Shown: positions 3,048 through 32,000 of the stretch, one piece after another
Position numbering within the stretch: the stretch's first letter is position 1
Layout of the letters: each line of letters begins with the position of its first letter
Program-made: the position numbers and the translations under genes
Notes under the pieces: generated by a model
The model's database searches: none
Seen by the model: only the letters and a program-made list of their open reading frames with translations
Told to the model about the DNA's origin: nothing
Assembly: GCA_003516025.1 (NCBI GenBank)
Contig: CP023991.1
Span: 1-32,000 of the forward strand
Length of the DNA stretch: 32,000 nucleotides
DNA from: Candidatus Saccharimonadota bacterium
GTDB lineage: Bacteria > Patescibacteriota > Saccharimonadia > Saccharimonadales > UBA4665
Direction: 5' to 3'

Positions 3048-3058
3048 AGATTATTCAT

Positions 3059-3087
3059 ATCATAGCAAAAAGGTAGTGTTTTGTCAA
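3059..3087 (-). promoter_or_regulatory. sigma70-type promoter TTGACA-17-TATGAT for the 333-aa gene
   Basis: Minus strand reads TATTGACAAAACACTACCTTTTTGCTATGAT. The -35 is 3082-3087 and the -10 is 3059-3064. The ATG follows 11 nt after the -10. It sits back to back with the tsaD -10 region. Confidence 0.6.
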
Positions 3088-3119
3088 TAGCTGGTGGAGG
3101 CGTGCTATGCTGGTAAGTA

Positions 3120-4181
3120 GTGAAAGTTTTAGGGATTGAGACCAGTTGTGACGAGACGGCGGCCGCGGTAGTTGAAGACGGCCGGATTCTGCATAGTAAC
3201 GTCGTGGCCAGCAGCATGGACCTGCATGCCCAGTACGGCGGCGTCGTGCCGGAAATTGCCGCGCGCAGCCACATTGAGGTGATTATGCCCGTCATCGAAC
3301 AGTCACTGGAAGAAGCCGCGGCGACCTGGGATGATATCGACGCCATCGCCGTTACGTACGGAGCCGGTTTGGGCGGCAGCCTGCTGATTGGCGTCTTGAC
3401 TGCCCGCACCCTGGCCATCGCCAAGCAAAAGCCACTGTACGCGATCAACCACGTCGAAGGACATTTATACGCCAACTTCTTAACGGGCACTTCCCTGCCC
3501 GGCTACGCTCTTCCGGCGTCGCAACCGGTTTTCCCTGTGCTTGGCCTGATCGTTTCCGGCGGACATAGCCAACTGGTCTATTTCCGCGACCATTTTGATT
3601 ACACCTTGCTCGGACAAACTCAGGACGATGCCATTGGTGAAGCTTTCGATAAGGTAGCTAAAATCCTCGGACTCCCCTACCCTGGCGGCCCGAGCGTATC
3701 AAAGAAGGCCCTGGAAGGTGATCCGTTTAAGTATTCTCTGCCCAAAGCCCGTCTAAACGGAAAATACGATTTTTCCTTTTCCGGACTTAAGACAGCGGTA
3801 CTCAGGTTAGCTCAGGAGCAGATTGGCGAGGACTTCACTTTCCCCTCCACTGCCCTGCCCGACCGCTTAAACGACCTACAAAAAGCTGATATAGCGGCCA
3901 GTTTTCAACGCGTAGCCGTGGAAACGGTAGTCGACAAAGCTGCTACGGCTTACGAAGAGTACGGGCCCAGAACCGTCATTATCGGCGGCGGCGTGGCCAG
4001 CAGCCCGGAACTGCGCCGGCAACTCAGCGGACGACTGCCCTTGCCTGTCAGCTATACCGATCCAAAGCTTTGTACTGACAACGGCGCTATGATTGCTACC
4101 CTTGGCTGTTACAAAGTTATGCTTGGCGCCGAGCCCGCCGACCCATACGCGCTTGATATCGCGCCGAATCTCTCGATGTAG
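3120..4181 (+). CDS. tsaD: tRNA N6-adenosine threonylcarbamoyltransferase TsaD
   Basis: N-terminus MKVLGIETSCDETAAAVV, metal-binding NHVEGHLYA, and GGVASSPELR near the C-terminus are typical of the Kae1/TsaD family. GTG start at 3120. TGcTATGCT (3103-3111) lies 8 nt upstream and there is no SD. Confidence 0.93.
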   Translation: MKVLGIETSCDETAAAVVEDGRILHSNVVASSMDLHAQYGGVVPEIAARSHIEVIMPVIEQSLEEAAATWDDIDAIAVTYGAGLGGSLLIGVLTARTLAIAKQKPLYAINHVEGHLYANFLTGTSLPGYALPASQPVFPVLGLIVSGGHSQLVYFRDHFDYTLLGQTQDDAIGEAFDKVAKILGLPYPGGPSVSKKALEGDPFKYSLPKARLNGKYDFSFSGLKTAVLRLAQEQIGEDFTFPSTALPDRLNDLQKADIAASFQRVAVETVVDKAATAYEEYGPRTVIIGGGVASSPELRRQLSGRLPLPVSYTDPKLCTDNGAMIATLGCYKVMLGAEPADPYALDIAPNLSM

Positions 4182-9688: not shown

Positions 9689-9726
9689 CACGTAAAAGAG
9701 CCCGACTAAAGCCGAGCCCATTTACG

Positions 9727-9816
9727 TGGCGGAGAGGGAGGGATTCGAACCCTCGGAACCGTTGCCGGCTCACTTGTTTTCGAGACAAGCCAATTCAACC
9801 ACTCTTGCACCTCTCC
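9727..9816 (-). tRNA. tRNA-Ser (anticodon CGA)
   Basis: Reverse complement is GGAGAGGTGCAAGAGTGG...CTCGAAA...GGTTCGAATCCCTCCCTCTCCGCCA. It has a 7-bp acceptor stem, anticodon loop CU-CGA-AA, long variable arm, T-loop and encoded CCA. Confidence 0.9.
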
Positions 9817-9953
9817 CTACATAGTCAAACTACTGCAAAGTATTGTAACAGATTGAACAAGTTTGACGACAGCCATTTTGCCTCTAGCCAGCGAAGCGAA
9901 TTTATGATAGGATTACATCTGTAGTTTTTCCGCTTTCGTACAGACATATATAT

Positions 9954-10030
9954 GTACCCGTAGCTCAGCTGGATAGAGCGTTGGCTTGCGGAGCCAAAGG
10001 CCGCAGGTTCGAATCCTGCCGGGTACACCA
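9954..10030 (+). tRNA. tRNA-Arg (anticodon GCG)
   Basis: GTACCCG-TA-GCTC-AGCTGGATA-GAGC-G-TTGGC-TTGCGGA-GCCAA-AGGCC-GCAGG-TTCGAAT-CCTGC-CGGGTAC-A-CCA. A full cloverleaf can be drawn by hand, and positions 34-36 are GCG. Confidence 0.9.
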
Positions 10031-10044
10031 TCATGCTAATGCTT

Positions 10045-10077
10045 AAAAGGCTTCTCTGATGAGCAGCCTTTTAATTT
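10045..10077 (+). terminator. rho-independent terminator after tRNA-Arg
   Basis: AAAAGGCT (10045-10052) pairs with AGCCTTTT (10065-10072), followed by a T-rich tail. Confidence 0.6.
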
Positions 10078-10144
10078 GGTGTTATTATGTTATTTATTAG
10101 CATTGCGTTCGTATCCTAGCAATTGTGTAGTATAGTTTAATGAC

Positions 10145-10495
10145 ATGAAAATAGATGACTCCGATACAACTATCAAAGACTTAACTGATTTATACTACGC
10201 ATTTTCCAAAGAGCGCAATTGGGAAGAGGGTTACAACCCATCATTTTTGACAAAATCTATCATTATCGAAGCAGCCGAGCTTCTTGAACATTTCCAAAAA
10301 TCTGACGGTAAAGCATCTATGGATAAAATGCAGGACCCACAAGCCAAGCAAGCCGTAGCATGGGAAATGGTCGACGTACTATACTACCTATTAATGTTGT
10401 CTCGGATCCTTGAAATTGACGTAGTGCAATCCTCAAAAGAAAAACTTGAGAATTTGGCATCAAGGTATACAGCAAAACGTATCAAGACATCATAA
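10145..10495 (+). CDS. MazG-like all-alpha nucleoside triphosphate pyrophosphohydrolase
   Basis: 116 aa. ExxE (EAAELLEH) and ExxD (EMVDVLYY) metal-binding motifs have the spacing typical of small MazG/dCTPase-like proteins. TATAGT lies 8 nt upstream of the ATG. Confidence 0.7.
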   Translation: MKIDDSDTTIKDLTDLYYAFSKERNWEEGYNPSFLTKSIIIEAAELLEHFQKSDGKASMDKMQDPQAKQAVAWEMVDVLYYLLMLSRILEIDVVQSSKEKLENLASRYTAKRIKTS

Positions 10496-10511
10496 TATAT
10501 TAAGCCGAGTG

Positions 10512-11450
10512 ATGAATGTAAAATTATCCGCCAACGATTTTGAAACCGTTATAAGCCAAAGAGTGGGTGATAGCAGGTTGGCGGAGTTAAAATCTATCAC
10601 TGCTCACGACCTGCCACCCGTTGCATATACCTCTTTTGACGGAGACATGTGGTCGCACAGTGAGTTAATGAAACAATATGTATTACGTAATGGTGCAGTA
10701 CCCCTGCATCCCGAAGCCGCTCTCGGCACGTACTTAGTGACTAATCATTACAAAGGCGATAAAGGCCCTATCATCGACGACTGTTTAAGTTTGATCAATG
10801 CGGTTGATGAGTTTTATGTTATGTCAACGGTCATGCCAGAAAAAGAGACAGACATTAGAGAACTGCCTGAAGGCGTGTTGGCGGAAGTCGTATACTGGAC
10901 CGCTCGTCGGAATAAGAAAATTAAATACATAGATATTTCTACGTATGCAGACAAAAAGGACTATGAGCATAGTCCTAAAATAATCGACAATTTGGCTACT
11001 GCCCAACAGGACGGAATCCGAGCAGCAACAAGCAAGAATAGGAAGCTAAGGAAGATAGCTTACTTATTATCTGGAGAATCTCATGCTAAACATACCGACT
11101 GGATGCGTCAGGATGCTTACGATAACGAATTGGTTCCTTTGTCTCCTTATACACTTCTAAACTACGGTACGCTTCAAATTGCATATCCAAATGATTATTT
11201 TATGCAAATTAAATGTCGAATGGCACTCGCCATAAGAGCAGACGTCGTTAACGTCTACGGTATACAACCGGAGCAGGACTTTGAGTTAATTAAACTGCCG
11301 GACGATACACTCTGTGAATTATACGTAATTATGCGTCTTAAACCCGAGACACATGTGAATTATAAATATTTCGGAGACGTAGGAGTGCCCAAATATACAG
11401 ATAGGAAAAAGTGGGTCATCACTGAGTACGAGCAAGGACTAACGGAATGA
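10512..11450 (+). CDS. hypothetical protein with an internal tandem duplication; each half resembles a nucleoside 2-deoxyribosyltransferase-like / DUF4406-like domain
   Basis: The two halves align by eye:
- half 1: VAYTSFDGD..MKQYVLRNGAVPLHPEAAL..IDDCLSLINAVDEFYV..LPEGVLAEVVYW
- half 2: IAYLLSGES..MRQDAYDNELVPLSPYTLL..KCRMALAIRADVVNVY..LPDDTLCELYVI
Start taken at ATG 10512 (MNVKL), 17 nt after the MazG stop. Confidence 0.55.
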   Translation: MNVKLSANDFETVISQRVGDSRLAELKSITAHDLPPVAYTSFDGDMWSHSELMKQYVLRNGAVPLHPEAALGTYLVTNHYKGDKGPIIDDCLSLINAVDEFYVMSTVMPEKETDIRELPEGVLAEVVYWTARRNKKIKYIDISTYADKKDYEHSPKIIDNLATAQQDGIRAATSKNRKLRKIAYLLSGESHAKHTDWMRQDAYDNELVPLSPYTLLNYGTLQIAYPNDYFMQIKCRMALAIRADVVNVYGIQPEQDFELIKLPDDTLCELYVIMRLKPETHVNYKYFGDVGVPKYTDRKKWVITEYEQGLTE

Positions 11451-11980
11451 TAAGCCGCCCATTTACGGAAATTCCGAGAATCGTAGTAGTGAACGGCGAT
11501 GTGTGTTCGGGCAGCTCAACGATCGCCCGTGAGATATCTACCAGTTTAAGCTACGATTATGTCGACGTAGGACAGCTGTTTCGATTAGAACTCAAGCGAG
11601 ATCCATCCCTTAATTTGGGCAGACTATCACTGCAGCTAAACGAAAAAGTGCGAGATAGGATAGCGACTGGCAGCAAATGCGTTATAGAAGGAAGGTTAGT
11701 TGGGCAGCAGGCACAGGGTTTCGAAGATATAGGTAAGGTACTGTGCACGGCGCAAGAATCTGTAATTCTTAGACGATACATGGAGAGGGAAGGCATACCT
11801 TATGCAGAATTAGCGATGCAATCCTTGACCGCGCGTTACACTCACGACGATGAAATACTTTCAAAGACATGGGGGATTACACGAGCCGACGCGTTAAACC
11901 CTGGCTTGTACGATGTAGCTATAGACACCTCGCATTCAAGTCCAGCAGAAATCGTTCGTGATCTCGGGTTCTCGACTTAG
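11447..11980 (+). CDS. cytidylate-kinase-like P-loop protein lacking the Walker A lysine
   Basis: RIVVVNGDVCSGSSTIAREIS resembles the (d)CMP kinase N-terminus, but GSST replaces GKST. The ATGA start/stop overlap with the upstream gene indicates translational coupling. Confidence 0.6.
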   Translation: MISRPFTEIPRIVVVNGDVCSGSSTIAREISTSLSYDYVDVGQLFRLELKRDPSLNLGRLSLQLNEKVRDRIATGSKCVIEGRLVGQQAQGFEDIGKVLCTAQESVILRRYMEREGIPYAELAMQSLTARYTHDDEILSKTWGITRADALNPGLYDVAIDTSHSSPAEIVRDLGFST

Positions 11981-12074
11981 CATATTCAAAACCATTTTCA
12001 GGTTACTCTGATGCTTAAACCTCGAATACGGGTTACCACTTCGTTGACTACGCTACACCATTTTCGTTATACAT

Positions 12075-12113
12075 ATAAAGTGCTTTTCAGATGAAAAGTA
12101 CTTTATATTTTTT
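12075..12113. terminator. bidirectional rho-independent terminator between convergent genes
   Basis: ATAAAGTGCTTTTC (12075-12088) pairs with GAAAAGTACTTTAT (12093-12106), 14 bp with one G-U. The loop is AGAT. An A-rich run precedes it and a T-run follows. Confidence 0.75.
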
Positions 12114-12123
12114 GAATTCTAGT

Positions 12124-13026
12124 CTACCAAATCTCGACATCAAGCTTTTTGAGTATCGTATCAATATTATTATCCGACACAATGTCTTTCCAGCCCCTAT
12201 GTCCAATTACCTGATAGCTATACGCATATAAATTTTTTGTATTGAAATACGGAATAGGGTCAGCAGCATGCTCTGTAAGGTAATTCTTTAGTCTGCGGCT
12301 AAACTCAGAGGTAAGTATGACCTCCCTGAAGCCAGCTTCAATACTCCGCAGTTCATCGATGGAATACATATCTTTTTTAAGCATCCTAAACTTGTGTGAG
12401 TAACCGACAAGATCCTGATATTCAGCCCATTCATCGCCGCTGTCGTAACAATTCCTAATCCGCTGGACCATTACATTTATCTCTGAAAGCGCAAGCGCTT
12501 GAAGAAGATAGACGGCAAGCGGTTTTAGGTCGAAGGGACATTCTTTGACGCGGTATGTTACGGAAAACTCTGCAAAACTGTGCGGAGATGTATTACTAAA
12601 CTGTATTAATTTCGAGTTTAATTCTCGCGCATCATCATTAATAGGATTTGATCTTAAGAAATCCTCGCGCATCGTCCAAGGCAAAGTATGTAATTCATGG
12701 ACCTCATCTAATAACTCTGGTACATCATACTGAACAAGTCGCTCATATTCACTGCTGATTTGATTAACTGCAGCTGTAATGTCATCCGAGTCTATACGTA
12801 CACTTTCCAGTATCGATAATAATCCTGTAATCATCGTCTCATGAGCAGCTTCAACGGATATAACAATAATGCCGTCATATGTATTCGCATTTAATTCATA
12901 GTCAAGAAGCGGTGCGTAGCGTTGTACCATGAAAAAATCATTGATTTTGTCAGCAATTATATGTTCATAAATATGTCCGACGGAATGGAAGGCAGATTGC
13001 TTTATTAGTGTAATCTCGGGTCTCAT
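12124..13026 (-). CDS. hypothetical protein, 300 aa, with an N-terminal HxxEH motif
   Basis: AT-rich long ORF. Residues 18-22 read H-I-Y-E-H, the inverted zinc motif of M16/pitrilysin-type proteins. The rest was not recognisable by eye. TAATAT lies 6 nt upstream of the ATG. Confidence 0.6.
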   Translation of the reverse strand: MRPEITLIKQSAFHSVGHIYEHIIADKINDFFMVQRYAPLLDYELNANTYDGIIVISVEAAHETMITGLLSILESVRIDSDDITAAVNQISSEYERLVQYDVPELLDEVHELHTLPWTMREDFLRSNPINDDARELNSKLIQFSNTSPHSFAEFSVTYRVKECPFDLKPLAVYLLQALALSEINVMVQRIRNCYDSGDEWAEYQDLVGYSHKFRMLKKDMYSIDELRSIEAGFREVILTSEFSRRLKNYLTEHAADPIPYFNTKNLYAYSYQVIGHRGWKDIVSDNNIDTILKKLDVEIW

Positions 13027-13170
13027 ATCAACATATTACAACATAGACAGAGTTTTATAAGTCATCAGGCTAACTTAACAGGTTAATAGAACTCCGTTAA
13101 GTATTTAATGAGTACAGTGGCATATGTACTATTCTATGATCTTGGTTCTAACCTCAGCTAGTTTGCTACA

Positions 13171-18851: not shown

Positions 18852-18886
18852 AGTATAGCGGCAGAGGGCCGCTATTGGGGTATGAT
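18852..18886. promoter_or_regulatory. divergent -10 pair for the lipid kinase and the SGNH hydrolase
   Basis: Minus-strand TATACT (18852-18857) lies 6 nt before ATG 18845. Plus-strand TATGAT (18881-18886) lies 6 nt before ATG 18893. GCGGC..GCCGC dyad lies between them. Confidence 0.45.
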
Positions 18887-18892
18887 GAACAG

Positions 18893-19651
18893 ATGAAAGC
18901 ATTGCCCGGTTCAAAAGTACTCCTGATTGTATTGGTTATTATCGGCTTGCTCGTTTGTCTGGTAGTGGTTAATTACCTTGCAATCCGTTATAACGGCACG
19001 AACGTGCCAGCTCCCACCATTCCCCGGCAGCCTGAGCAATATGGTCGGGGAAGGCCCATTACATACGCCGTACTGGGTGATAGCACTTCTATTTCGCAAG
19101 GTGGTGATTACGACAAGGGTTACGCCCGGGGCAGCGCCCGCTACCTAGCGAGTAAGGGCTATCTTGTGAGTTTTCAAAACTTTGGTATTTCCGGTGCCCG
19201 AACGGCAGACTTACTGCGAAAGCAGGTCCCAAAAGCGGCAACTTTGCGGCCGGATATCGTTCTCATAGCTGTAGGCGCTAACGATACGACGCATTTTACC
19301 AATATTACGAGCGTGCGGCGCGACCTGGCACAGTCCATTGCTGATTTGCGAAAGGCCAATCCAACGATAAAAATTCTGTTGACCGGATCGCCGCAAATGG
19401 GCTCGGTGCCTCGTTTCCCGGAACCAAGTAAAACTATTATGAGACAGCGCAGCGCGCAGGTTAACAGAGCCGTTCGTGAATTAGTGGATGATAAACAGGT
19501 TTTCTTCGTACCAATTGCCGACGAGACCGGCCCAGTGTTTATGCGGCATCCGGATTATTACGCGGCCGATAAGTTTCACCCCAATACTACTGGTTACGGG
19601 ATATGGACACCAGTGGTTACTAAAGTATTAGACCATGCTATAGGCCAATAA
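18893..19651 (+). CDS. SGNH/GDSL-family hydrolase with an N-terminal membrane anchor
   Basis: The SGNH blocks are:
- block I: AVLGDSTS
- block II: GISGART
- block III: AVGANDT
- block V: DKFHPN
The N-terminal anchor is VLLIVLVIIGLLVCLVVV. The track ORF uses TTG 18875; ATG 18893 is preferred. Confidence 0.8.
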   Translation: MKALPGSKVLLIVLVIIGLLVCLVVVNYLAIRYNGTNVPAPTIPRQPEQYGRGRPITYAVLGDSTSISQGGDYDKGYARGSARYLASKGYLVSFQNFGISGARTADLLRKQVPKAATLRPDIVLIAVGANDTTHFTNITSVRRDLAQSIADLRKANPTIKILLTGSPQMGSVPRFPEPSKTIMRQRSAQVNRAVRELVDDKQVFFVPIADETGPVFMRHPDYYAADKFHPNTTGYGIWTPVVTKVLDHAIGQ

Positions 19652-20668: not shown

Positions 20669-23083
20669 TTAGTAGGCACGTGCCTGAATAGAGGACCCAG
20701 TAAGGTGTACCTGGTAGTAGACCCCATTTGAAATAGTACCTATAACAGGATCACAGCCGTCATCAATACCATCGTTGTCCTGATCGACATGAGCGCTTGG
20801 CAAGTCTCCACACCCAGAGTCAGGCAGGGCGCCAGAACAGTCAGCTCCCGTAACGTATATAACTTTATGTATGTCCACGGGTTGATTGAGCATGTTCGGC
20901 CCAAGCACGTGTAGGGTGTGGTACCCGCAGCCAATGTCTTTTGGCAGAATGATATATCCGGCCACCACACCAAGCGTATCAGTTGTAATGCTTGACACGG
21001 ACGGGCCGCCGGCATCCAGCTTTACATCGTAAGTAGCGTTGGGAGGTAACAATATAGAAGACGAGTCCACACTAACCGGGATGTTCAGGTTACGGTTTAC
21101 TACGTCCGGTAGTAGATTGCTGTCGCTCGCCGATACTTTAGTGGGCCGCCCGGTTTTAGGCGCGTTGGCGAGTGGTAATTCACCACTCGGCGAAGAAGGA
21201 GGATTCACCGCTAGAGACTGCAGGTTATCGGTTCGAGCAAGGATAGTCCGCATCAGTAGCTCATGCCCAAAAGCATTTGGGTGATAACTCTCAGCACCAA
21301 TTATTTTTAGGCTACCGAAGCCGCCCTCATTACCAGCAGTCAAGCCGTTGACAGCCACCTGGTTGTCGGGACCTTCACACATCCGATGGCCATTAAGAGC
21401 GTCGCTCACGTCGACGTACCGCGCACCAACTGATTCGGCTGCAGTTTTTATTGTTTGATTCAGTACATCCGTCAAGTCGTTAAACAGTATGATTTCCTGG
21501 TTACTCAAATGAACGTTGGCAGCACAACTACCACCGCTTTTAACAATTTGCGGATAGCCTATCACATACAGCACCCTGCCAGGAGCCGCTAATAACAAGT
21601 AAGCACTCCGTAGTTTACTGCCTATAGCGGTAATTCTTTCTTTCAGCTCAACCTGGTCTTCGTACGAGTTAAAGCACGTATTGTCCTTAAGAGTCGGCAT
21701 GACGCATTGCTTTACAATATCCGCGAAGCCAATGTCATTACCACCAATTGACAAACTAAGGACCTGGGGGCTGTGTGTTTGCGCGAATTCCAGCTGCGAC
21801 AGGTAGCCCGGCGAGAAGTTCATAAGAATAGTACCGCTATTATTCCTGTCTTTACGAGCTATGCCGTCTCGTGTTTGGCCTTTATATACTTCAGACTGAC
21901 TGGTAACATCAATAATTCTGGCTCCAGAACAGGCGACTGAGTGTCCGCTCGCGAACAGTAGAGAGCTGAGGAGTAAGGGATACGATAAACCGGAAGTGTG
22001 GCAGCCGTTCGTGGCAGTGTCAGTATCTTGAATGTAATTGAATGCCCCTTGGCCGGACGCATAGGAATCACCCATACCAAGGTATTGGATGCCGCTCGGA
22101 CTTTCACCCGGAGCAGTCAATGTATAGTAGGCAACTTTAAAATTATTAGGACCAATGGTGTCATACTTTACAGCCAGGCTTAGCTGAGTGCCGTTAATAA
22201 AATGGGGTTCAAAAGCATTGTTAAAACTTGGAACTTGTGTTTTCAAGCTCGGCCAATAATCACGTAATTGGCATTTTGGCTTTAGGCGGTCAACTGGCAA
22301 GCTGGAGTCACGACAGCTTTGCACATCGTAGACTTCCAGTCGCTCCCATTGTACGGGTTTTATGGCGACATAGCGGCCGTCGTTCGACACGGAGATGTCA
22401 GCTTGGTGTGAAGTATAGTCTCCGGCTCCATTAAAAGCGGGCGCGAAGGGGATTACTTCAAAGGTGGACATGTTAACCCTGACGAAGCCTTTGGAATATA
22501 ATTCAATTACCATCCAATTGCCATTTGAAGAGAAAGCCATATTATCAGGGTTTACAGGCATGAGTCGACCGTCGGTGTCGCGAAAACTAAAATCAGGCGG
22601 CGCATTCAAGGTGTATTTTCGCAAGGCGTGGGTTACGGAATCATACGCAGGCCGAATTTTACTAAGGATTGAACTGTACAGATGCATGTAGACACCAACT
22701 ACTGGAGCGCTGCTGTATCCGATGACCGCCGATTGTCCAGGAACCGGACTGACACTTGACACATACGCCTGCGGTTCTATCTTTACGGCTTCTGAACTGC
22801 CAGTAAATACAACCTTGTTACTGTCGGCCAGACCATAGGGCGTCTGCTGCATACACAGGTTGCGCATGACCGTTTCATTGATATACCGCGCAGTTATTGG
22901 CAGGCAGGGGAAATTGCTAACCGAAGGGGTCGTATTATCCGGCAGGTCGGCAATCTTCCGTAATGTCGGGTCGCCGCTTCTAGTCCATGATCCATCACTT
23001 TCCAGCGCGAAAGCTATGCCCACAACACCGAAGAGCACTATAAAAACTAAAATACCGAACCACGTTTTGCGCTTGAACATCAC
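20669..23083 (-). CDS. large secreted or anchored multidomain SGNH/GDSL hydrolase (804 aa)
   Basis: Signal/anchor KTWFGILVFIVLFGVVGIAFA. The N-terminal ~330 aa are beta-rich. SGNH blocks are GMGDSYASGQG, SIGGNDIGF and SYHPNAFGH. The C-terminus has a calcium-binding-like DQDNDGIDDGCD. GGAG SD is present, with TTGCAT-17-TATATT upstream. Confidence 0.8.
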   Translation of the reverse strand: MMFKRKTWFGILVFIVLFGVVGIAFALESDGSWTRSGDPTLRKIADLPDNTTPSVSNFPCLPITARYINETVMRNLCMQQTPYGLADSNKVVFTGSSEAVKIEPQAYVSSVSPVPGQSAVIGYSSAPVVGVYMHLYSSILSKIRPAYDSVTHALRKYTLNAPPDFSFRDTDGRLMPVNPDNMAFSSNGNWMVIELYSKGFVRVNMSTFEVIPFAPAFNGAGDYTSHQADISVSNDGRYVAIKPVQWERLEVYDVQSCRDSSLPVDRLKPKCQLRDYWPSLKTQVPSFNNAFEPHFINGTQLSLAVKYDTIGPNNFKVAYYTLTAPGESPSGIQYLGMGDSYASGQGAFNYIQDTDTATNGCHTSGLSYPLLLSSLLFASGHSVACSGARIIDVTSQSEVYKGQTRDGIARKDRNNSGTILMNFSPGYLSQLEFAQTHSPQVLSLSIGGNDIGFADIVKQCVMPTLKDNTCFNSYEDQVELKERITAIGSKLRSAYLLLAAPGRVLYVIGYPQIVKSGGSCAANVHLSNQEIILFNDLTDVLNQTIKTAAESVGARYVDVSDALNGHRMCEGPDNQVAVNGLTAGNEGGFGSLKIIGAESYHPNAFGHELLMRTILARTDNLQSLAVNPPSSPSGELPLANAPKTGRPTKVSASDSNLLPDVVNRNLNIPVSVDSSSILLPPNATYDVKLDAGGPSVSSITTDTLGVVAGYIILPKDIGCGYHTLHVLGPNMLNQPVDIHKVIYVTGADCSGALPDSGCGDLPSAHVDQDNDGIDDGCDPVIGTISNGVYYQVHLTGSSIQARAY

Positions 23084-25790: not shown

Positions 25791-25821
25791 GCAAACGAAA
25801 ACCCCGCTCTTACGAGCGGGG
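25791..25821 (-). terminator. rho-independent terminator closing the pilin-like gene array
   Basis: Minus strand reads CCCCGCTC-GTAA-GAGCGGGG followed by TTTTCGTTT, about 30 nt after the stop of the last array gene. Confidence 0.75.
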
Positions 25822-25853
25822 CAGTGTAGGCGAAAGGTTCGCGGGTCCGGTTA

Positions 25854-26276
25854 TTAGCCGTCGAGGCCGGAAGCCTGGCCAAGTACGAAACGGACGATGA
25901 ACTGTGCCAAGGCAACGATCACCAAACCAACGAGGGCGTAGATGATAGTGTTCTTAGCACCAGATACGTTGCCAGAGTCGCCACCAGAGGTGATGTATTT
26001 TAGACCACCGATGATGATCATGATGACAGCAATAACACCAACGATGATTGAGAAGATGTTAATAACACGCTTCAGCAGGGTGCTAACGTTGTTAGCGGCG
26101 GTTTGACCTTCGGCTTCGGCATCACAAGTACCGGTAGCGTTCAGGTTGACGCCCTGACACAGGCTACCCTGAATATCAGTATCCTGAGCATAGACAGCGA
26201 CTGGTACCAAAGCTGGGGCAGCGAAGGTGAACAGCGCGGCAACTGCGATAAGCATATTACGTACTTTTGAGATCAT
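25854..26276 (-). CDS. VirB2/TrbC-like T4SS pilin-family protein, paralog 6 of 6 (140 aa)
   Basis: Signal peptide ending VAVYA-QD, a two-Cys loop (CQGVNLNATGTC), then a two-TM hairpin with GGLKYITSGGDSGNVSGAKNTIIYALVGLV. Own promoter at 26311-26340 and an AAAGG SD. Confidence 0.75.
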   Translation of the reverse strand: MISKVRNMLIAVAALFTFAAPALVPVAVYAQDTDIQGSLCQGVNLNATGTCDAEAEGQTAANNVSTLLKRVINIFSIIVGVIAVIMIIIGGLKYITSGGDSGNVSGAKNTIIYALVGLVIVALAQFIVRFVLGQASGLDG

Positions 26277-26310
26277 ATAGAACCTTTCATTACTTTCTTA
26301 TTTTAATCAA

Positions 26311-26340
26311 TTTATACCACAATACCTACCTGCTTTGCAA
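26311..26340 (-). promoter_or_regulatory. internal promoter TTGCAA-18-TGgTATAAA ahead of the last pilin-like gene
   Basis: The only sizeable gap in the array is 84 nt (26277-26360). The -35 is 26335-26340. The extended -10 runs 26311-26319, with the hexamer at 26311-26316. Confidence 0.5.
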
Positions 26341-26360
26341 GCATAAGTATTATCTAGGAA

Positions 26361-26744
26361 TTATACTGAACCGAGGGCGAATTTAACAATTACTTGGGCC
26401 AGGGCCGCTACGACAATGCCGACCAGAGCATAAGTAAGAGCACTCTTGGCACCCGAAACTTTACTGCTGTCACCGCCAGAGGTTATATAGCGTAATCCAG
26501 ATATCACGATCATAATCACAGCCGCGATACCAATGATATAGCTTAGGATATTGATGATAGCCTTTACCACACTGGCGATATCGACGCCCGTGCCGCCGTT
26601 ACAGTCGTTGCCGGCATTAATGGATTGGCAAACCTCGGTTTTTGGGTCAGCCGCAAAGACAGGTGCGGTTACCAATGGCGCCACGCCGAACCCGATCGTC
26701 AGGGCCATTACTCCAGTCATTATCAATTGTTTGATTCGTTGCAT
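26361..26744 (-). CDS. VirB2/TrbC-like pilin-family protein, paralog 5 of 6 (127 aa)
   Basis: Signal peptide ending APVFA-AD, two-Cys loop CQSINAGNDC and hairpin motif SGLRYITSGGDSSKVSGAKSALTYALVGIV. It starts 3 nt after the upstream stop. Confidence 0.75.
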   Translation of the reverse strand: MQRIKQLIMTGVMALTIGFGVAPLVTAPVFAADPKTEVCQSINAGNDCNGGTGVDIASVVKAIINILSYIIGIAAVIMIVISGLRYITSGGDSSKVSGAKSALTYALVGIVVAALAQVIVKFALGSV

Positions 26745-26747
26745 ACG

Positions 26748-27137
26748 TTATACCTTGCTTAATACAAATTTTAATATTGCTTGCGCCGTCAGGACGATCA
26801 CTACGCCAACCACCGCGCCGATTAATGCCGACTTGGCACTGGCTACCTTACTGGCTTCACCGTTGGCGGTAATAAAGTAAAAGCCGCTGAGCAGCACCAT
26901 GATAACGGCGGCGATACCGGCTACGTTAGCCACGATACGGGTAACCTTATACAGGATACCATTGGGGCCACTGACTGGATCAGCGGTCTTATTCTTGTCG
27001 GTACATACAGCCGATGAGCCCGAGTTGTTGCCGCCAACCTGACAGGCTTCATTAAGCGGATCATAGGCGACTGCCGAAGCAGCAGGTAAGGCGACGCAAC
27101 TGAATATAAGCGCCAGGGCAATGATAAAACGTTTCAT
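26748..27137 (-). CDS. VirB2/TrbC-like pilin-family protein, paralog 4 of 6 (129 aa)
   Basis: Signal peptide ending ASAVA-YD, two-Cys loop CQVGGNNSGSSAVC and hairpin motif SGFYFITANGEASKVASAKSALIGAVVGVV. TAATG stop/start overlap with the upstream gene. SD is AAGGGGGTG. Confidence 0.75.
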   Translation of the reverse strand: MKRFIIALALIFSCVALPAASAVAYDPLNEACQVGGNNSGSSAVCTDKNKTADPVSGPNGILYKVTRIVANVAGIAAVIMVLLSGFYFITANGEASKVASAKSALIGAVVGVVIVLTAQAILKFVLSKV

Positions 27138-27421
27138 TACGACACCCCCTTTACGACAAACGTTACGATCGAGAAAGCCATCAGCGAGACGACAAGCCCG
27201 ACCAGAGCATAAATGATAGTGTTCTTAGCTTGCGAGACAGCGCTTGGATCTCCGTGCGCTAAAACATAACGCAGGCCGCCAATAACGATCATCAACAGAG
27301 CGATAGAGCCGGTTATCGAGAACACAATGCTCAAAATATTATCAATAGAGGCCTGGTTGGCCTGAGCTTTCGGCAACCCTTCAGTGGTTATAACTTGTGC
27401 GAAATGATACAGACTATTCAT
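27137..27421 (-). CDS. VirB2/TrbC-like pilin-family protein, paralog 3 of 6 (94 aa), with no signal peptide and no Cys
   Basis: Starts with polar MNSLYHFAQVITTEGLPKAQ, then goes directly into the hairpin GGLRYVLAHGDPSAVSQAKNTIIYALVGLV. SD is GGGTGGA. Confidence 0.7.
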   Translation of the reverse strand: MNSLYHFAQVITTEGLPKAQANQASIDNILSIVFSITGSIALLMIVIGGLRYVLAHGDPSAVSQAKNTIIYALVGLVVSLMAFSIVTFVVKGVS

Positions 27422-27426
27422 ATATA

Positions 27427-27822
27427 TTATCCACCCAACCGGTTGCCCAGGAACGCTACCAGGCTAACAGCTATTAATGATACGACCAAGCCAATCAGGG
27501 CATTGATGATGGTCTGCTGCGCCTTGCTGGTCTGGTCGGGCGCGCCCTGACTGGTAACATAGGTAATACCGCCGTAAATAATAAATCCTACGGCAACCAA
27601 GGCGGCGACACGAAGCAGGTCGTCAACGATAACCAGCCCGATGAGCAGAAAATCGCTGCGGTTACCGAGAACCTGAAAATTTGTGACTTCGCAAGCGCCA
27701 GTCTGCGGGTTAGCCTGTAGATTAAGGTACTGGTACCACGGCTTAAGGCCGAAGAAGGTCGGCCGGTCCGTACAAGCCGCGGCGAAGTTCTGCACGAGCG
27801 GACTGATAAGCGAAGCGAACAT
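27427..27822 (-). CDS. VirB2/TrbC-like pilin-family protein, paralog 2 of 6 (131 aa)
   Basis: Atypical N-terminus MFASLISPLVQNFAAAC and two Cys (ACTDRP...GACEV). Hairpin motif is YGGITYVTSQGAPDQTSKAQQTIINALIGLV. SD is AGGAGGA. It starts 1 nt after the upstream stop. Confidence 0.7.
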   Translation of the reverse strand: MFASLISPLVQNFAAACTDRPTFFGLKPWYQYLNLQANPQTGACEVTNFQVLGNRSDFLLIGLVIVDDLLRVAALVAVGFIIYGGITYVTSQGAPDQTSKAQQTIINALIGLVVSLIAVSLVAFLGNRLGG

Positions 27823-27823
27823 A

Positions 27824-28264
27824 CTAAATGATTCCTCCTGGGATTAAGAAGTTGAGTAGCGCGTACAGGAAAAAGAAAGCAACCAGTGCCACGATGGCGT
27901 TGATGATCCATTTCTTACCGGAGGCGACTTTTTGCGGATCGCCACCTGAACTACCATACTGAATACCACCGTAAATAATCGCGATTACTACCGCGACACC
28001 AAAAAAGGCCGCTATAAAGCGGATCGCCGGATTGAGGTACGTCTTAATAAGACCGCAATCGCTCACATTGGCGCAGTCACCACCGCCAAGAGCAGGGTCG
28101 CAGGAATCGCGCTGTACCCGCTCAACCCCATCATCACTGGCTTCAGTAGAGGATGGGTCAGCGCATGTCGCGGCATATGCTTGGCTGGGAGTAGATACCA
28201 GGCCAATGCATGCCGAAGCGACAATGGCGAGTATGAGGAGTCGGAGCATTTTCATTTTTTGCAT
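27824..28264 (-). CDS. VirB2/TrbC-like pilin-family protein, paralog 1 of 6 (146 aa from MQKMKM)
   Basis: Signal peptide MQKMKMLRLLILAIVASACIGLVSTPSQAYA-AT and a four-Cys ectodomain. Hairpin motif is YGGIQYGSSGGDPQKVASGKKWIINAIVALV. The track start 28366 would run through the promoter region. Confidence 0.7.
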   Translation of the reverse strand: MQKMKMLRLLILAIVASACIGLVSTPSQAYAATCADPSSTEASDDGVERVQRDSCDPALGGGDCANVSDCGLIKTYLNPAIRFIAAFFGVAVVIAIIYGGIQYGSSGGDPQKVASGKKWIINAIVALVAFFFLYALLNFLIPGGII

Positions 28265-28282: not shown

Positions 28283-28311
28283 ATTATTAGCTTTTTTGGA
28301 CCGGTTTGCAA
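28283..28311 (-). promoter_or_regulatory. promoter TTGCAA-17-AATAAT for the pilin-like array
   Basis: The -35 is 28306-28311 and the -10 is 28283-28288 (minus strand), about 19 nt upstream of ATG 28264. Confidence 0.4.
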
Positions 28312-28436: not shown

Positions 28437-31070
28437 ATGAAAAACTTTTTCAAACGGCGAAAATATCAGATTGCCATGTTTTTAGTGGCGACGTTTGCCC
28501 TAGGCGGACTATTCGCATTAGTTCCTACCTCTCAGGCTGAAGCAGCCGATGGCTGGGTAGTGGTCGAGAATGGCAACCGCACGGCTCAATGGGTCGCCCC
28601 GGACAAGATAGTATACGGCGGCCAGACATTCGTTGACAGCAATACCGGGGACAATAACTGGAATTTCGAATACAAATACGTACGGGACGGTGGGGTCGTA
28701 GGGCTTGACGACTGTGAGAGCAAAATTTGGTTCAACGTAAACCCGTACGGCGTTAACGGCGGCCAGAACGCGCGTGCCACCGTTGAAACAACCAACGGTG
28801 GCGGGGCTATTGCATGTAGCGCGACATTCACCGACGAGGCACTGCAGTTAACGAACCGGGTTACCCGCTGTAACGGCGACGCGGCCTGTGTACAGCAGGC
28901 TGCTCAGGAACAGTGTGGCACGACCGGAAGCGCGGATAGTATTAGTACCTGTATGGCCAATGTCACGCAGCAGGGTAATACCGCTCCGACGACTGGTGGC
29001 GCCGGCTCTACGGGAGGACAGTCGGCCGAAGACTCCAGCACTGGCTGTGATTTTGGTGGCAATCCCTTAACCTGGATCATTTGTCCGACAATTGGGATTT
29101 TAGAAGTCATGATCCAGAAAGTGGATGACTTTATTATGTCTTCACTGACTTTCGACACCGAGAATGTCTTTAAGACAGACGGTGGTTATTATGCCGCCTG
29201 GAACTCATTCAGAGTTATCGCTACCAGCTTGCTGGTTATCGTAGGTATCGTTATGGTGACCTCGCAGGCTCTGGGATTCGAGTTCCTCGATGCCTACACT
29301 ATTAAAAAAGTACTGCCGAGATTACTGATTGCGATTATTGGCATGACCCTGTCGTGGCCGCTCATGAAATTCGCGATTGAATTCTTTAACACGTTAGGGA
29401 CCGACGTTCGTAGCCTGATATATAGTCCGTTCGGAGCGGAGATACAAGGCACCCTAGGGGGAAGCACGCTATTCGTATTTAACGCCGCGACCATCGCCGC
29501 GTTAGTCGCATTAGGGCCGGGAGGAATACTGTCATTCCTCGTTACCGCCGCGCTAGCCGTACTGGTTGGTTTTGTTATTATCCTTGTCCGTTACCTGGCA
29601 ATCATTGTGCTGGTAGTGTTCGCGCCAATTGCCATAGCCGCTTTCATATTGCCAAATACCAACAAGATTTGGGACTTGTGGAGAACCAACTTTATCGGCT
29701 TATTACTGGTGTTCCCAATTATTTCAGCCTTCATCGCGATCGGTAGAGTATTTTCGGCGGTTTCGCTTGGTGGCGGCGGACCTGATTCATTCGCGGCCGG
29801 TAGTATTGCCCAGATCGTTGGTTTTGTGGCTTATTTCTTACCATACTTCTTACTTCCTATCGCCTTCAGGCTTGCCACGGGAGTAATCGGTTCCATAGCC
29901 GGCTTCGTGAACGACAAAAACCGCGGTGCCTTCGACCGGCTCAAAAAGTATCGCCAGAACGCTTACGCCACTCATGGTGGCGTTCGCATGGAGCGTGGCA
30001 AAGAACGTGCTCTGCAACAAAAATACCGGGCATATAACAACCTCCAGAATGCCAGTGGTGGACGCGTCAAACGGTTTGCTGCCCGCAGGGCAGCGGGGGC
30101 GATAGGCGGGTTCAACATTGAATCACAGGTATCTGCCAACAATGCTAAAAACGCCAAGATGATTGACGATCAGACAGCCAACGGGCCCGATAACTTAGTC
30201 CGTGCCTACACGGTCAATAAAAGCTACGCTGATAAATTATTGGCTAGTGGCGACTCACGCGCCTCTGACTTCGTCCGTGTCAATAAAGACGCTGCCGGCA
30301 ATGAGATTGGTCGTGAATACCGTTCAGTCGGTGGCTCATGGCAAAGCGAAGCCGACGTATTAGCTTCTAACCGCGCCTTTGGCAACAACAACCATGCTGC
30401 TTTCCAAAAAGCACTTACCTACGAAATGGGTAAGGCCAACACGCAGGAGGAGCAGGATCACGTTGTCAGTTCTTACGGAGCAGCTGCTGCCCGCTTTGGC
30501 ATGACACAGCGCGAAGCAGGAGAGGTCTGGATAGGCTCAGCGTACGCTCAGCAGAACAGCAACCGCCAGTGGAAGCATCACAAGTGGTCAACCGGTTCAG
30601 ACGGCATGCTGCACAGTTCTGTTAACGGCCTCGGTATGATGCGCGAAATTGACGAGAAGCAGGGCAACTACCAGATGATGCAGCAGAGTGCCGATACCTG
30701 GACTACCATGGGTCAGGAAGTCGTTACCGCCCGGCAGGTTATGGACGGCTCGGTTACTGGTGACCGCGTCAAGGCCGAAGAGACCTTGCAGCGGGCCGCC
30801 CGCATCGCGCACGCGACACGTTCCGGCGGTATGTCCCGTTCACCTGTTACCGGCCAGGAAGGTGACGTTACCGGAGCAACGACCGGCGGTGGTGGAGAAG
30901 TTGGATCTGGTGCTCCTGGCCGTGTCATGGAAGAGATGAACCGCTTCGTTCAACTTACCGATATGCATGCAGGTAAGTACACTCCGCCGAAAGGCAGCTC
31001 AGCTCCGCCGACAGTTATTCCTGGCGACGTAAGCGAAGGGACTATAAACCGGCGTTCTCCAGATCGGTAA
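28437..31070 (+). CDS. VirB6/TrbL-like polytopic T4SS membrane protein with a Cys-rich ectodomain and a long hydrophilic C-terminal extension (877 aa)
   Basis: Signal peptide ending SQAEA-AD. A ~170-aa ectodomain carries 8 Cys. About 7-8 TM segments span residues ~210-490, with Gly/Ile/Phe-rich helices like TrbL/VirB6. A ~390-aa polar tail ends in Gly-rich TGATTGGGGEVGSGAPG. Confidence 0.65.
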   Translation: MKNFFKRRKYQIAMFLVATFALGGLFALVPTSQAEAADGWVVVENGNRTAQWVAPDKIVYGGQTFVDSNTGDNNWNFEYKYVRDGGVVGLDDCESKIWFNVNPYGVNGGQNARATVETTNGGGAIACSATFTDEALQLTNRVTRCNGDAACVQQAAQEQCGTTGSADSISTCMANVTQQGNTAPTTGGAGSTGGQSAEDSSTGCDFGGNPLTWIICPTIGILEVMIQKVDDFIMSSLTFDTENVFKTDGGYYAAWNSFRVIATSLLVIVGIVMVTSQALGFEFLDAYTIKKVLPRLLIAIIGMTLSWPLMKFAIEFFNTLGTDVRSLIYSPFGAEIQGTLGGSTLFVFNAATIAALVALGPGGILSFLVTAALAVLVGFVIILVRYLAIIVLVVFAPIAIAAFILPNTNKIWDLWRTNFIGLLLVFPIISAFIAIGRVFSAVSLGGGGPDSFAAGSIAQIVGFVAYFLPYFLLPIAFRLATGVIGSIAGFVNDKNRGAFDRLKKYRQNAYATHGGVRMERGKERALQQKYRAYNNLQNASGGRVKRFAARRAAGAIGGFNIESQVSANNAKNAKMIDDQTANGPDNLVRAYTVNKSYADKLLASGDSRASDFVRVNKDAAGNEIGREYRSVGGSWQSEADVLASNRAFGNNNHAAFQKALTYEMGKANTQEEQDHVVSSYGAAAARFGMTQREAGEVWIGSAYAQQNSNRQWKHHKWSTGSDGMLHSSVNGLGMMREIDEKQGNYQMMQQSADTWTTMGQEVVTARQVMDGSVTGDRVKAEETLQRAARIAHATRSGGMSRSPVTGQEGDVTGATTGGGGEVGSGAPGRVMEEMNRFVQLTDMHAGKYTPPKGSSAPPTVIPGDVSEGTINRRSPDR

Positions 31071-31131: not shown

Positions 31132-31551
31132 ATGGCCTCAGAACGATTTGACACTCCGGTCTACAATGTAATACCCGTGCAACATGAAGATGCCGAAGAT
31201 GGAAAATTCTTTCCATTCCATAACCCTGTTACGGATGCCGAGGGCATTTCCATGATAGTAGGGCTGGTTCCGGCTGCCGATTTGAGCGGTGGTGATCACT
31301 TTAAATATTTGGGCCAGAAAGTTGATCCACCAGTAGAAGTAATGCCTTTACATGGCGTCCGAGGCGATAAAGCGCTCTGGTTTGACTTAAGCACGGTCAA
31401 TGACTCCGCCGCAGCACAGCAGCGCCTTGAAACGGTCCGGCAACTCATGGAAAAGGTGATTAACGTAGGTACGGATCCTCTCGGCTATTTCGAGGCTCGA
31501 TATGAGACAACGAGCGTAACTGAAACACTAGATATCCGCCCGCTGACGTAG
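31132..31551 (+). CDS. hypothetical small acidic cytoplasmic protein, 139 aa
   Basis: ORF with an AAGGA SD 8 nt upstream and no TM segment. Its position between the VirB6-like and PrgI-like genes suggests a locus-specific accessory protein. Confidence 0.6.
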   Translation: MASERFDTPVYNVIPVQHEDAEDGKFFPFHNPVTDAEGISMIVGLVPAADLSGGDHFKYLGQKVDPPVEVMPLHGVRGDKALWFDLSTVNDSAAAQQRLETVRQLMEKVINVGTDPLGYFEARYETTSVTETLDIRPLT

Positions 31552-31585: not shown

Positions 31586-32000
31586 ATGGCGACGTACAAA
31601 GTTCTCCAGGATATTGAGGCAGAAGACAAGCTGGTGGGCCCGCTGACGCTCCGGCAGTGTATTTATGCTGCCATTGCTATCGTATCCATCTATTTTTCAT
31701 ACTTGGTTATATCCAAAGGCGCAGCCTTTTTGGCAGTCGTATTTCTACCGTTTATTGGTTTTGGCATTTTCTTTGCTTTCCCATGGAACAAGCAGCAGTC
31801 GACCGAAGTTTGGGCACTGGCAAAAGTCCGGTTCGCCCTTAAGCCGCGTAAGCGTATTTGGGATCAGAGCGGTATTAAACAGCTGGTTGCGATTACGGCT
31901 CCGAAGCAGGTTGAGGACCCACGCAAGAATAGCCACATGTCCGAAGTGGAAGTCCGCAACCGCCTGGCGGCCCTGGCGGCTACCGTTGACAGCCGTGGTT
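31586..32000 (+). CDS. PrgI/VirB3-like T4SS membrane protein, 5' part (runs off the window; may continue into a VirB4-like ATPase)
   Basis: Hand translation gives MATYKVLQDIEAEDKLVGPLTLRQCIYAAIAIVSIYFSYLVISKGAAFLAVVFLPFIGFGIFFAFPWNK.... The EDK-x-GPLTLRQ start plus two TM segments is the PrgI-family signature. There is no stop before 32000, so it is absent from the ORF track. Confidence 0.65.
   Translation, partial: MATYKVLQDIEAEDKLVGPLTLRQCIYAAIAIVSIYFSYLVISKGAAFLAVVFLPFIGFGIFFAFPWNKQQSTEVWALAKVRFALKPRKRIWDQSGIKQLVAITAPKQVEDPRKNSHMSEVEVRNRLAALAATVDSRG

Follow-up and report, generated by a model that had tools for sequence, protein, structure and literature searches.

The 32,000-nucleotide stretch analyzed here (the window, positions 1 to 32,000 of contig CP023991.1 in GenBank assembly GCA_003516025.1, from a Candidatus Saccharimonadota bacterium) carries six head-to-tail open reading frames (ORFs) that run along the minus strand from position 28264 to position 25854, the same coordinates as in a preliminary description made from the sequence alone. 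We call the genes P6 (the first of the array) to P1 (the last). Family and locus identity make it almost certain that they are a VirB2-like pilin set of a chromosomal, monoderm-type type IV secretion system (T4SS) of a Saccharimonadales bacterium (Saccharibacteria, within the candidate phyla radiation [CPR], or Patescibacteria). Within this set, P1 is probably the one major subunit and P2 to P6 are probably five nonredundant minor subunits. Taken whole, the pilin set together with the working that we propose for it is our best explanation of the locus, and we consider it only slightly likelier to be right than wrong. The array is an already known system, because its gene order is that of SEML1_0008-0021 in Southlakia epibionticum ML1, the ML1 array is essential, and arrays of this kind were surveyed in 2025; the preliminary description had given neither the T4SS context nor these publications. 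The array itself thus adds no new kind of system, but the order of its genes, a private promoter, gene fusions, and paired cysteines sharpen a published idea of host-range versatility into a testable major/minor model, in which P6 is nominated as the candidate host-specificity determinant.

Family membership and layout of the six genes

The preliminary description had recognized six paralogs sharing a membrane hairpin motif. A six-paralog alignment (A1) bears out this consensus, although only five hairpin residues are strictly invariant besides the start methionine (G91, G99, A114, V119, and F130 in P1 numbering); the GG of the motif is SG in P2 and P3, and GD/AK is GA/AQ in P5. Identity to P1 ranges from 28 to 47%, and the closest paralog of P2 is P1 (47% identity, 90 bits). 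All 15 paralog pairs score 20 to 90 bits (E values of 9e-5 to 2e-26), whereas the maximum among 3,000 composition-matched shuffles was 13.2 bits. The similarity is therefore homology and not an effect of membrane-helix composition; since every pairwise value is significant, the generic transmembrane origin that the preliminary description had allowed for the motif falls away.

All six proteins score above the gathering threshold (26.6 bits, whole-protein hidden Markov model [HMM] score) of the T4SS_pilin family, PF18895, with values of 53.3 bits for P1, 43.6 for P2, 36.4 for P3, 47.8 for P4, 27.1 for P5, which passes marginally, and 33.2 for P6. P1 also passes the gathering threshold (27.9 bits) of PF04956 (TrbC/VirB2) at 32.8 bits, P2 (23.7 bits) and P3 (23.5 bits) lie below it, and the Pfam scan returned no PF04956 match at E ≤ 0.1 for P4, P5, or P6. 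The term “pilin-like” used in the preliminary description is thus apt in the sense that all six are T4SS_pilin family proteins, relatives of VirB2/TrbC, and not type IV pilins. Identity as a type IV pilin or pseudopilin was rejected because a class III leader and F/M-x-x-x-E motif are found in none of the six and there are no matches to type IV pilin Pfam models. P1 has at least 4,984 homologues, and the nearest named ones come from Candidatus Saccharimonadales genomes, where they are annotated “pilin.” In an AlphaFold2 model of P1 made from the family alignment (predicted local distance difference test score [pLDDT], 74), a leader helix (residues 2 to 28) is followed by a low-confidence Cys loop and by two helices (residues 53 to 96 and 101 to 137), which is the architecture of a conjugative pilin, a leader plus a two-helix hairpin with a short polar loop; among the six proteins, the leader is present in only P1, P2, P3, and P6.

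The first gene, P6 (27824-28264, 146 amino acids [aa]), encodes a signal peptide, an ectodomain with four cysteines, the pilin hairpin, and a C-terminal IPGG. P5 (27427-27822, 131 aa) has an N-terminal domain (FAAxC...FGLxPWYQYL...C) followed by the hairpin; the preliminary description had called its N terminus atypical, and indeed we found no classical signal peptide. P4 (27137-27421) is the shortest subunit, at 94 aa, and is, as had been stated, devoid of both signal peptide and cysteine. P3 (26748-27137, 129 aa) has a signal peptide, a two-Cys loop, and an NP/DP-x-GPNG(I/V)L motif ahead of the hairpin, P2 (26361-26744, 127 aa) has a signal peptide and a two-Cys loop, and the last gene, P1 (25854-26276, 140 aa), encodes a signal peptide, a two-Cys loop, and a nearly invariant hairpin. 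The segment ahead of the hairpin measures 25 to 70 aa in the six. The earlier tally of cysteines and signal peptides (two cysteines each in P1, P2, and P3 and four in P6, all after a signal peptide) agrees with ours, and it left unmentioned the two cysteines of P5, C17 and C44, which are nearly invariant among P5 orthologues. The P5 FAAxC sequence was considered, and rejected, as a lipoprotein or signal-peptidase I site, because there is no basic N-terminal region and the orthologues carry disallowed residues at -1, and also because the segment is retained inside the P6-P5 fusions described below.

Positional orthology, expression signals, and natural fusions

We fetched 80 species-representative loci and called their pilin ORFs with an HMM trained on the six paralogs of the window. 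Arrays of six genes were found in 48 cases (47 loci plus the window), of seven genes in 13, of eight in 3, and of five in 10, and the rest were truncated arrays. Among the 48 six-gene arrays, positional orthology was scored by raw bit scores as a best match in another array that lies at the same position; this was the case in 91% of comparisons for P6, 92% for P5, 77% for P4, 54% for P3, 40% for P2, and 98% for P1, against 17% by chance. Because their best matches hold position in this way, P6, P5, P4, and P1 represent separate orthogroups of ancient origin. P3 and P2 resemble P1 and are harder to tell apart, and P2 orthologues match P1 about as well as they match P2. Grouping of all 468 pilin ORFs by average linkage gave no clean separation. 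All six genes are nevertheless kept in relatives, so that the other outcome foreseen in the preliminary description, conservation of a single paralog, does not hold. In the arrays of seven to eight genes, one to three extra P1-like copies stand beside or downstream of the P1 position, at the 3′ end (loci L015, L016, L026, L036, L039, L043, L044, L055, L058, L061, L066, L070, L072, L076, and L079), and these look like recent duplications of the presumed major pilin.

The preliminary description had presented the ectodomains as diversified. They do differ among paralogs, but each has its own signature that is conserved across species. A C-terminal [IV]P[GA]G is found in P6 in 41 of the 48 arrays and at this position only. 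In P5, whose ectodomain is highly conserved, the signature is FAAxC...FGLxPWYQYL...C, of which the W and a C are invariant and the first Cys and PWYxYL nearly so in an alignment of P5 homologues (A3). The P3 signature is NP-x-GPNG(I/V)L, with [DN]P[VILF] at position 4 in 34 of 48 arrays, and P1 and P2 have N(I/V)(F/L)S in common. Cysteines of the ectodomain, counted in 288 proteins from the 48 arrays with the hairpin HMM as an anchor, are even in number in 244 proteins, odd in 9, and absent from 35, nearly all of them P4-like. Two cysteines are the rule in P1, P2, and P3 (44 to 46 of 48 arrays; P3, 44; P2, 46) and in P5 (40 of 48). In P6, ectodomains as short as about 1 aa and as long as 196 aa occur, with 2 to 12 cysteines, whose number is even in 45 of 48 arrays. 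The earlier suggestion of a variable tip on a constant module therefore survives for P6 and not for the other paralogs. P4 has no cysteine in 33 of 48 arrays and a signal-peptide-like stretch in 9 of 48; a clear signal peptide is seen in the P4-type subunit of L005 (8752-9141, 129 aa), unlike the P4 proteins of the window and most other arrays.

The closest available arrays are L086 and L087, to which P1 is 87% and 82% identical. Relative to L086, P2 to P6 are 36 to 58% identical; for scale, the neighboring Hsp20 and ComF proteins are 93% and 55% identical. P1 also has the highest between-genome score (132 bits, versus 71 to 98 bits for the others). The comparison of ectodomain with hairpin by dN/dS (nonsynonymous over synonymous divergence) that the preliminary description had proposed fails on saturated dS, and divergence is reported here as dN and amino acid identity only; what stands is that, relative to L086, the segment ahead of the hairpin is less identical than the hairpin in every gene (21% versus 56% in P6 and 81% versus 96% in P1).

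The tight packing of the first five genes, from which coupled translation had been proposed, is found throughout the related arrays. In the window, the P6-P5 and P5-P4 spacers measure 1 and 5 nt, P4 and P3 overlap by 1 nt (TAATG at 27137, where the P4 stop codon overlaps the P3 start codon; the P4 start codon is itself free of overlap), P3 and P2 are 3 nt apart, and the P2-P1 gap is 84 nt. In the 47 related six-gene arrays, the median gaps are -4 to +7 nt among genes 1 to 5 and 73 nt before the last gene. The P2-P1 gap of the window contains a putative extended -10 promoter for P1 (26311-26340, minus strand), identified from its sequence and conservation, that consists of TTGCAA (26340-26335), an 18-nt spacer ending in TGG, and TATAAA, with TGG TATAAA at 26319-26311. 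L086 and L087 share the element, although the sequence of the spacer varies. When the pattern TTGnnn-N13-17-TGnTAnn(A/T) was sought within 100 nt upstream of each gene, it was found ahead of the last gene in 39 of the 47 arrays and ahead of genes 1 to 5 in 0 to 2 of 47, the value for the intergenic region ahead of gene 1 being 0. P1 also has a ribosome-binding site (RBS), GAAAGG, at 26283-26288, 6 nt before its start codon; most related arrays have a AAGAAAGG RBS ahead of their last gene. An intrinsic-terminator-like hairpin (25801-25822, minus strand; 9-bp stem with seven GC pairs and a T-rich tail) lies 32 nt past the P1 stop codon. Upstream of P6, a promoter-like site (28283-28311, minus strand; TTGCAA-17-AATAAT, 9 of 12 consensus matches) is a possible operon promoter, although its pattern is not conserved ahead of gene 1 in relatives. 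A second sigma-70-like match (26360-26389, minus strand; TTGTTA-18-TATAAT, 10 of 12), which scores better than the conserved P1 element and lies about 50 nt upstream of it, extends over the end of P2.

Adjacent genes of the array are fused in several lineages. In-frame P5-P4 fusions, with P4 at the P5 C terminus, occur in at least five species (L006, 8467-9129; L041, 8433-9113; L059, 8273-9079; L078, 8412-9098; and L067, 124-825), and P6-P5 fusions occur in two (L042, 7825-8622, and L051, 7984-8787), so that the fused pilins are single four-helix proteins. Public gene predictions include seven P5 homologues of 215 to 229 aa, all with a P4-like second half (alignment A3), one of which sits on the contig from which L078 came. 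An AlphaFold2 model of one P5-P4 fusion (pLDDT, 73) has two hairpins with a disordered linker between them. Because P6 starts with a signal peptide, the fusions imply that the N-terminal segments of P5 and P4 lie outside the cell, and they also imply that P6, P5, and P4 are adjacent at a 1:1 ratio.

Known systems, proposed working, and alternatives

The window array is orthologous by synteny, gene order and sizes having been compared, to SEML1_0014-0019 of S. epibionticum ML1, a six-pilin array that is essential by transposon sequencing (Tn-seq) (Wang 2023, PMC10633639). The six ML1 genes measure 399, 558, 312, 381, 384, and 417 bp, and all are called GD/ES/ES (Table S1, PMC10633639). Both organisms belong to the same bacterial class, and their gene order is the same across SEML1_0008-0021. 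The sizes of the pilins follow one pattern (132/185/103/126/127/138 aa in ML1 and 146/131/94/129/127/140 aa in the window), and the gap before the last pilin gene is 83 nt in ML1 and 84 nt in the window. On one side, both have divergent VirB6-like, PrgI, and VirB4-like genes together with a gene of TraC-like size (882 bp and unannotated in ML1); on the other side, both have a convergent Hsp20 gene, comFC, and tRNA-Ser. SEML1_0012 and SEML1_0013, between the VirB6-like gene and the array, are found in ML1 only. The window organism is a different, uncultivated species with a GC content of ~50%, and essentiality is known for ML1 alone. The Hsp20 counterpart, SEML1_0020, was also scored essential in ML1, which in addition has an unlinked, nonessential “pilin,” SEML1_0024 (PMC10633639). 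Few envelope machines have been demonstrated to be essential to the growth of a CPR bacterium on its host, and the T4SS with its pilin series is one of them.

As described in parts of the survey by Quinonero-Coronel et al. (2025, Microb Genom; PMC12102498), Patescibacteria have 441 arrays of 2 to 11 pilin genes, abundant in Saccharimonadia, that were detected with PF18895/PF04956 and have a mean within-array identity of 25% and a maximum of 54%. The window array, with its 28 to 47% identity to P1, is of the same kind as the arrays so described. The survey suggests, by analogy with antigenic variation, that such arrays give versatility towards different host strains (parts of PMC12102498); the portions of it available to us contain no mention of positional orthology, a last-gene promoter, or gene fusions.

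Like the VirB2/TrbC/TraA pilins (PF04956), the window proteins combine a signal peptide with two hydrophobic helices and a short polar loop and have VirB3-, VirB4-, and VirB6-like neighbors. Those pilins belong to Gram-negative bacteria, however, whereas the window host is a monoderm with a T4SS like that of the mating pair formation (MPF) class MPF-FATA, a class said to lack VirB2. The window proteins also differ in having, ahead of the hairpin, a Cys-containing, predicted-disulfide segment of 25 to 70 aa (up to ~200 aa in relatives), and six differentiated paralogs take the place of one pilin plus VirB5. Cyclization as in TrbC/VirB2 was considered and rejected, since the C-terminal tails are not conserved and the cluster gives no sign of a TraF-like peptidase.

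All six proteins also match the NCBIfam model NF045849 (Mbov_0395 family pilin-like conjugal transfer protein of a Mycoplasma integrative and conjugative element) at E values of 1e-8 to 4e-4 (19.9 to 34.6 bits, P1 scoring best), in alignments that cover nearly the whole 80-residue model across the hairpin; these scores are below the curated 40-bit cutoff, and the six proteins are therefore not members of this family. Mbov_0395 resembles them in belonging to a monoderm-type conjugation system and differs from them in being a single gene on a mobile element. We know of no conjugative pilus described in the wall-less mycoplasmas. As a side observation, the NF045849 matches hint that VirB2-like hairpin proteins were already present in monoderm (MPF-FATA-type) conjugation systems, which bears on the published question of whether or not the pilins of Patescibacteria were co-opted from diderm systems. 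A working analogy, and nothing closer, is offered by the minor pilins of type IV pili and type II pseudopili, in which an abundant major subunit is accompanied by a conserved operon of low-abundance, noninterchangeable subunits that share its polymerization module, as we propose for the window set. There is no homology between the two, the class III prepilin leader and the G/FxxxE motif are missing from the window proteins, and the window proteins are two-helix hairpins, whereas type IV minor pilins have a single N-terminal helix and a globular head.

In the working that we propose, each subunit would sit in the membrane as a helical hairpin with its N-terminal segment and C terminus outside the cell, a topology that we infer from family membership, the natural fusions, and the paired cysteines. 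The polar loop (Y-I-T-S-G-G-D...A-K-N) would be cytoplasmic in the membrane-resident subunit and lumen-facing in the assembled one, the latter as solved structures of conjugative pili show, and disulfides would stabilize the extracellular segments. P1 would be the subunit produced in excess, from an extended -10 promoter of its own, and would form the shaft, and P6 to P2 would be cotranslated at low, matched levels from the tightly packed operon upstream. The latter would make up a defined heteromeric complex, with P6, P5, and P4 as direct 1:1 neighbors, that would serve the P1 polymer as a primer, cap, or anchor on the VirB6-like/VirB4 machine and so fill the role held elsewhere by VirB5 or minor pilins. 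P6, with its Cys-rich ectodomain of variable length, would be the likeliest host-contacting part and a candidate distal minor subunit. The extracellular filament, the tip position, and the role in host contact are speculative components of this proposal. In its most far-reaching form, the proposal is of a true heteromeric pilus in a monoderm, with a P1 shaft, a fixed P6-P5-P4(-P3-P2) priming/tip module, in some lineages partly joined into a single chain, that replaces VirB5, and a variable, Cys-rich P6 ectodomain that sets which host is parasitized; this form is possible but doubtful. If it is true, minor pilins would be described for a T4SS for the first time, and the epibiotic lifestyle of CPR bacteria would gain a defined specificity determinant.

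Several observations weigh against this account. According to passages of PMC12857230, a T4SS pilus has yet to be seen in a Patescibacterium, and “filament” is for this reason drawn from homology. Structure searches give it no help: Foldseek with the P1 model against the PDB found nothing at E < 0.8 (chemoreceptors and designed bundles are what a helical hairpin attracts), and the second-ranked structure, the archaeal conjugation pilus of Aeropyrum (8dfu), came at a nonsignificant E value of 3.8. A P1-family profile search of PDB sequences likewise gave only a spurious cytochrome bd match. The P1 promoter is inferred from the conservation of its sequence. Positional orthology is weak for P3 and P2, and the extra P1-like copies mean that the P1/P2/P3 end of the array turns over. 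P4 and P5, the latter with ~60 residues ahead of its hairpin, have no signal peptide, and their route of export is unexplained. The Tn-seq essentiality of the upstream pilin genes in ML1 could be due in part to polar effects. Finally, saturation of dS (>1.2 or undefined) relative to L086 and L087 makes a selection test impossible.

The strongest competing explanation is that the six proteins are members of the T4SS pilin family that build no extracellular pilus and serve instead as a short channel, a stalk, a wall-spanning conduit, or membrane-embedded accessory subunits of the VirB6/VirB4 machine, through which material would be exchanged with the host cell where the two cells are in tight contact. 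We regard this as rather unlikely, though it has real points in its favor: monoderm T4SSs are not known for pili, and none have been seen in Patescibacteria (parts of PMC12102498 and PMC12857230); the subthreshold likeness of all six proteins to the Mycoplasma family NF045849 fits it; and fixed stoichiometric partners and fusions suit a defined complex at least as well as a filament. On the other hand, P1 has the hallmarks of a bulk subunit, namely, a strong-looking promoter of its own, extreme conservation, and duplication in some arrays, and it is P1 that passes the TrbC/VirB2 threshold. Exposed segments of up to ~200 aa, predicted to be disulfide stabilized, also suggest display at the surface.

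Less probable still, and in our judgment quite improbable, is that the six are interchangeable alternative pilins for antigenic or host-range variation, as suggested in parts of PMC12102498. The comparison there is with TrwL of the Bartonella Trw system and VirB2 of Anaplasma phagocytophilum, which like the window set are tandem, divergent VirB2-like genes in a T4SS locus and which earlier work took to be variants that serve immune evasion or host-cell range (cited in parts of PMC12102498). Such a function would agree with the segment ahead of the hairpin being the fastest-evolving region, most markedly in P6, with the greatly varying length of the P6 ectodomain, with the P1-like duplicates of the seven- to eight-gene arrays, and with the difficulty of separating P2 and P3 from P1. 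Unlike the Bartonella and Anaplasma arrays, however, four of the six window positions (P6, P5, P4, and P1) are ancient orthogroups with private motifs, in the same order in 48 species-level genomes, and not recent lineage-specific copies. In a variation array, copies are closer to each other than to counterparts across genomes, a pattern that is absent at these four positions and partly present for P2, P3, and the extra P1-like copies. Moreover, neighbors are fused into single polypeptides in several lineages, only one gene has a strong-looking promoter, and all six genes were scored essential in ML1, which argues against redundancy. The analogy thus fits four of six positions poorly; it may hold for the P1/P2/P3-like end of the array and for the P6 ectodomain. 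We conclude that heteromeric assembly, with P1 as the major and P2 to P6 as the minor subunits, is favored over antigenic variants by the fixed order, the last-gene promoter, the fusions, and the even Cys counts, as well as by the ML1 essentiality; of the two readings put forward in the preliminary description, the heteromeric fiber is accordingly the better supported. The last alternative, a chance similarity in hydrophobic composition among unrelated small membrane proteins, is refuted by the pairwise scores relative to the shuffles, by the passing of the PF18895 threshold by all six, and by thousands of homologues in the same genomic context, even though weak side matches to cytochrome bd subunit II and DctQ show that composition does attract some matches.

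Type IV secretion neighborhood and other features of the window

Divergent from the array, on the plus strand, lies a gene for an extended VirB6/TrbL-like channel subunit (28437-31070), a multipass membrane protein of 877 aa. The Pfam scan gave no match for it at E ≤ 0.1, whereas the precomputed annotation of the gene on L083, a metagenome contig of the same strain, is PF19590 (TrbL_3), a discrepancy that is probably a difference between Pfam versions; its homologue in L023 has a weak match (21.7 bits) to PF04610 (TrbL/VirB6). The N-terminal ~200 residues form an exported Cys-rich segment, and the N-terminal region is 27% identical to that of L086. The next gene (31132-31551, plus strand) encodes a protein of 139 aa with no assigned function, for which no Pfam or NCBIfam match was found and which has a detectable sequence homologue in none of the 47 related loci; L023 has an ORF of similar size in the same slot (3012-3416), and the 139-aa protein may be an accessory component of the T4SS that evolves fast. 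The gene after it belongs to the PrgI family (VirB3-like; 31586-32000, plus strand), is cut by the end of the window, and matches PF12666 at 47.7 bits (threshold, 27). Past PrgI come, on L083, a TraC-like gene, a gene for a VirB4-like ATPase (P-loop_TraG/DUF87/AAA_10), and genes for a 1,057-aa protein and a lysozyme/M23 hydrolase, and the pilins are thus clustered with VirB4.

On the other side of the array, an Hsp20 gene (PF00011; 25223-25711, plus strand) is convergent with P1, and beyond it are genes for a ComF-like phosphoribosyltransferase and tRNA-Ser. These flanks are conserved: the convergent Hsp20 gene is present in 67 of 68 related loci, the VirB6-like gene in 46 of 47, and PrgI in all 47. 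The Hsp20 protein, kept so regularly beside the pilin array, bears an acidic N-terminal extension; it could be a pilin-handling chaperone, or the linkage could be simple synteny near the replication origin.

Farther from the array, a low-GC stretch at 9700-13100 (0.39 to 0.44, versus ~0.50 elsewhere) starts beside the genes for tRNA-Ser(CGA) and tRNA-Arg(GCG) at 9727-10030, holds ORFs with no Pfam matches together with one for a cytidylate-kinase-like protein, and may be an acquired island. Two GDSL-type lipase/acylhydrolase proteins are encoded close together at 18875-19651 (plus strand) and 20669-23083 (minus strand), one of them an 804-aa protein in which the GDSL domain is central. Saccharibacteria are thought to lack fatty acid synthesis (a general statement in part of PMC10633639), and the two proteins could be enzymes that scavenge host lipids.

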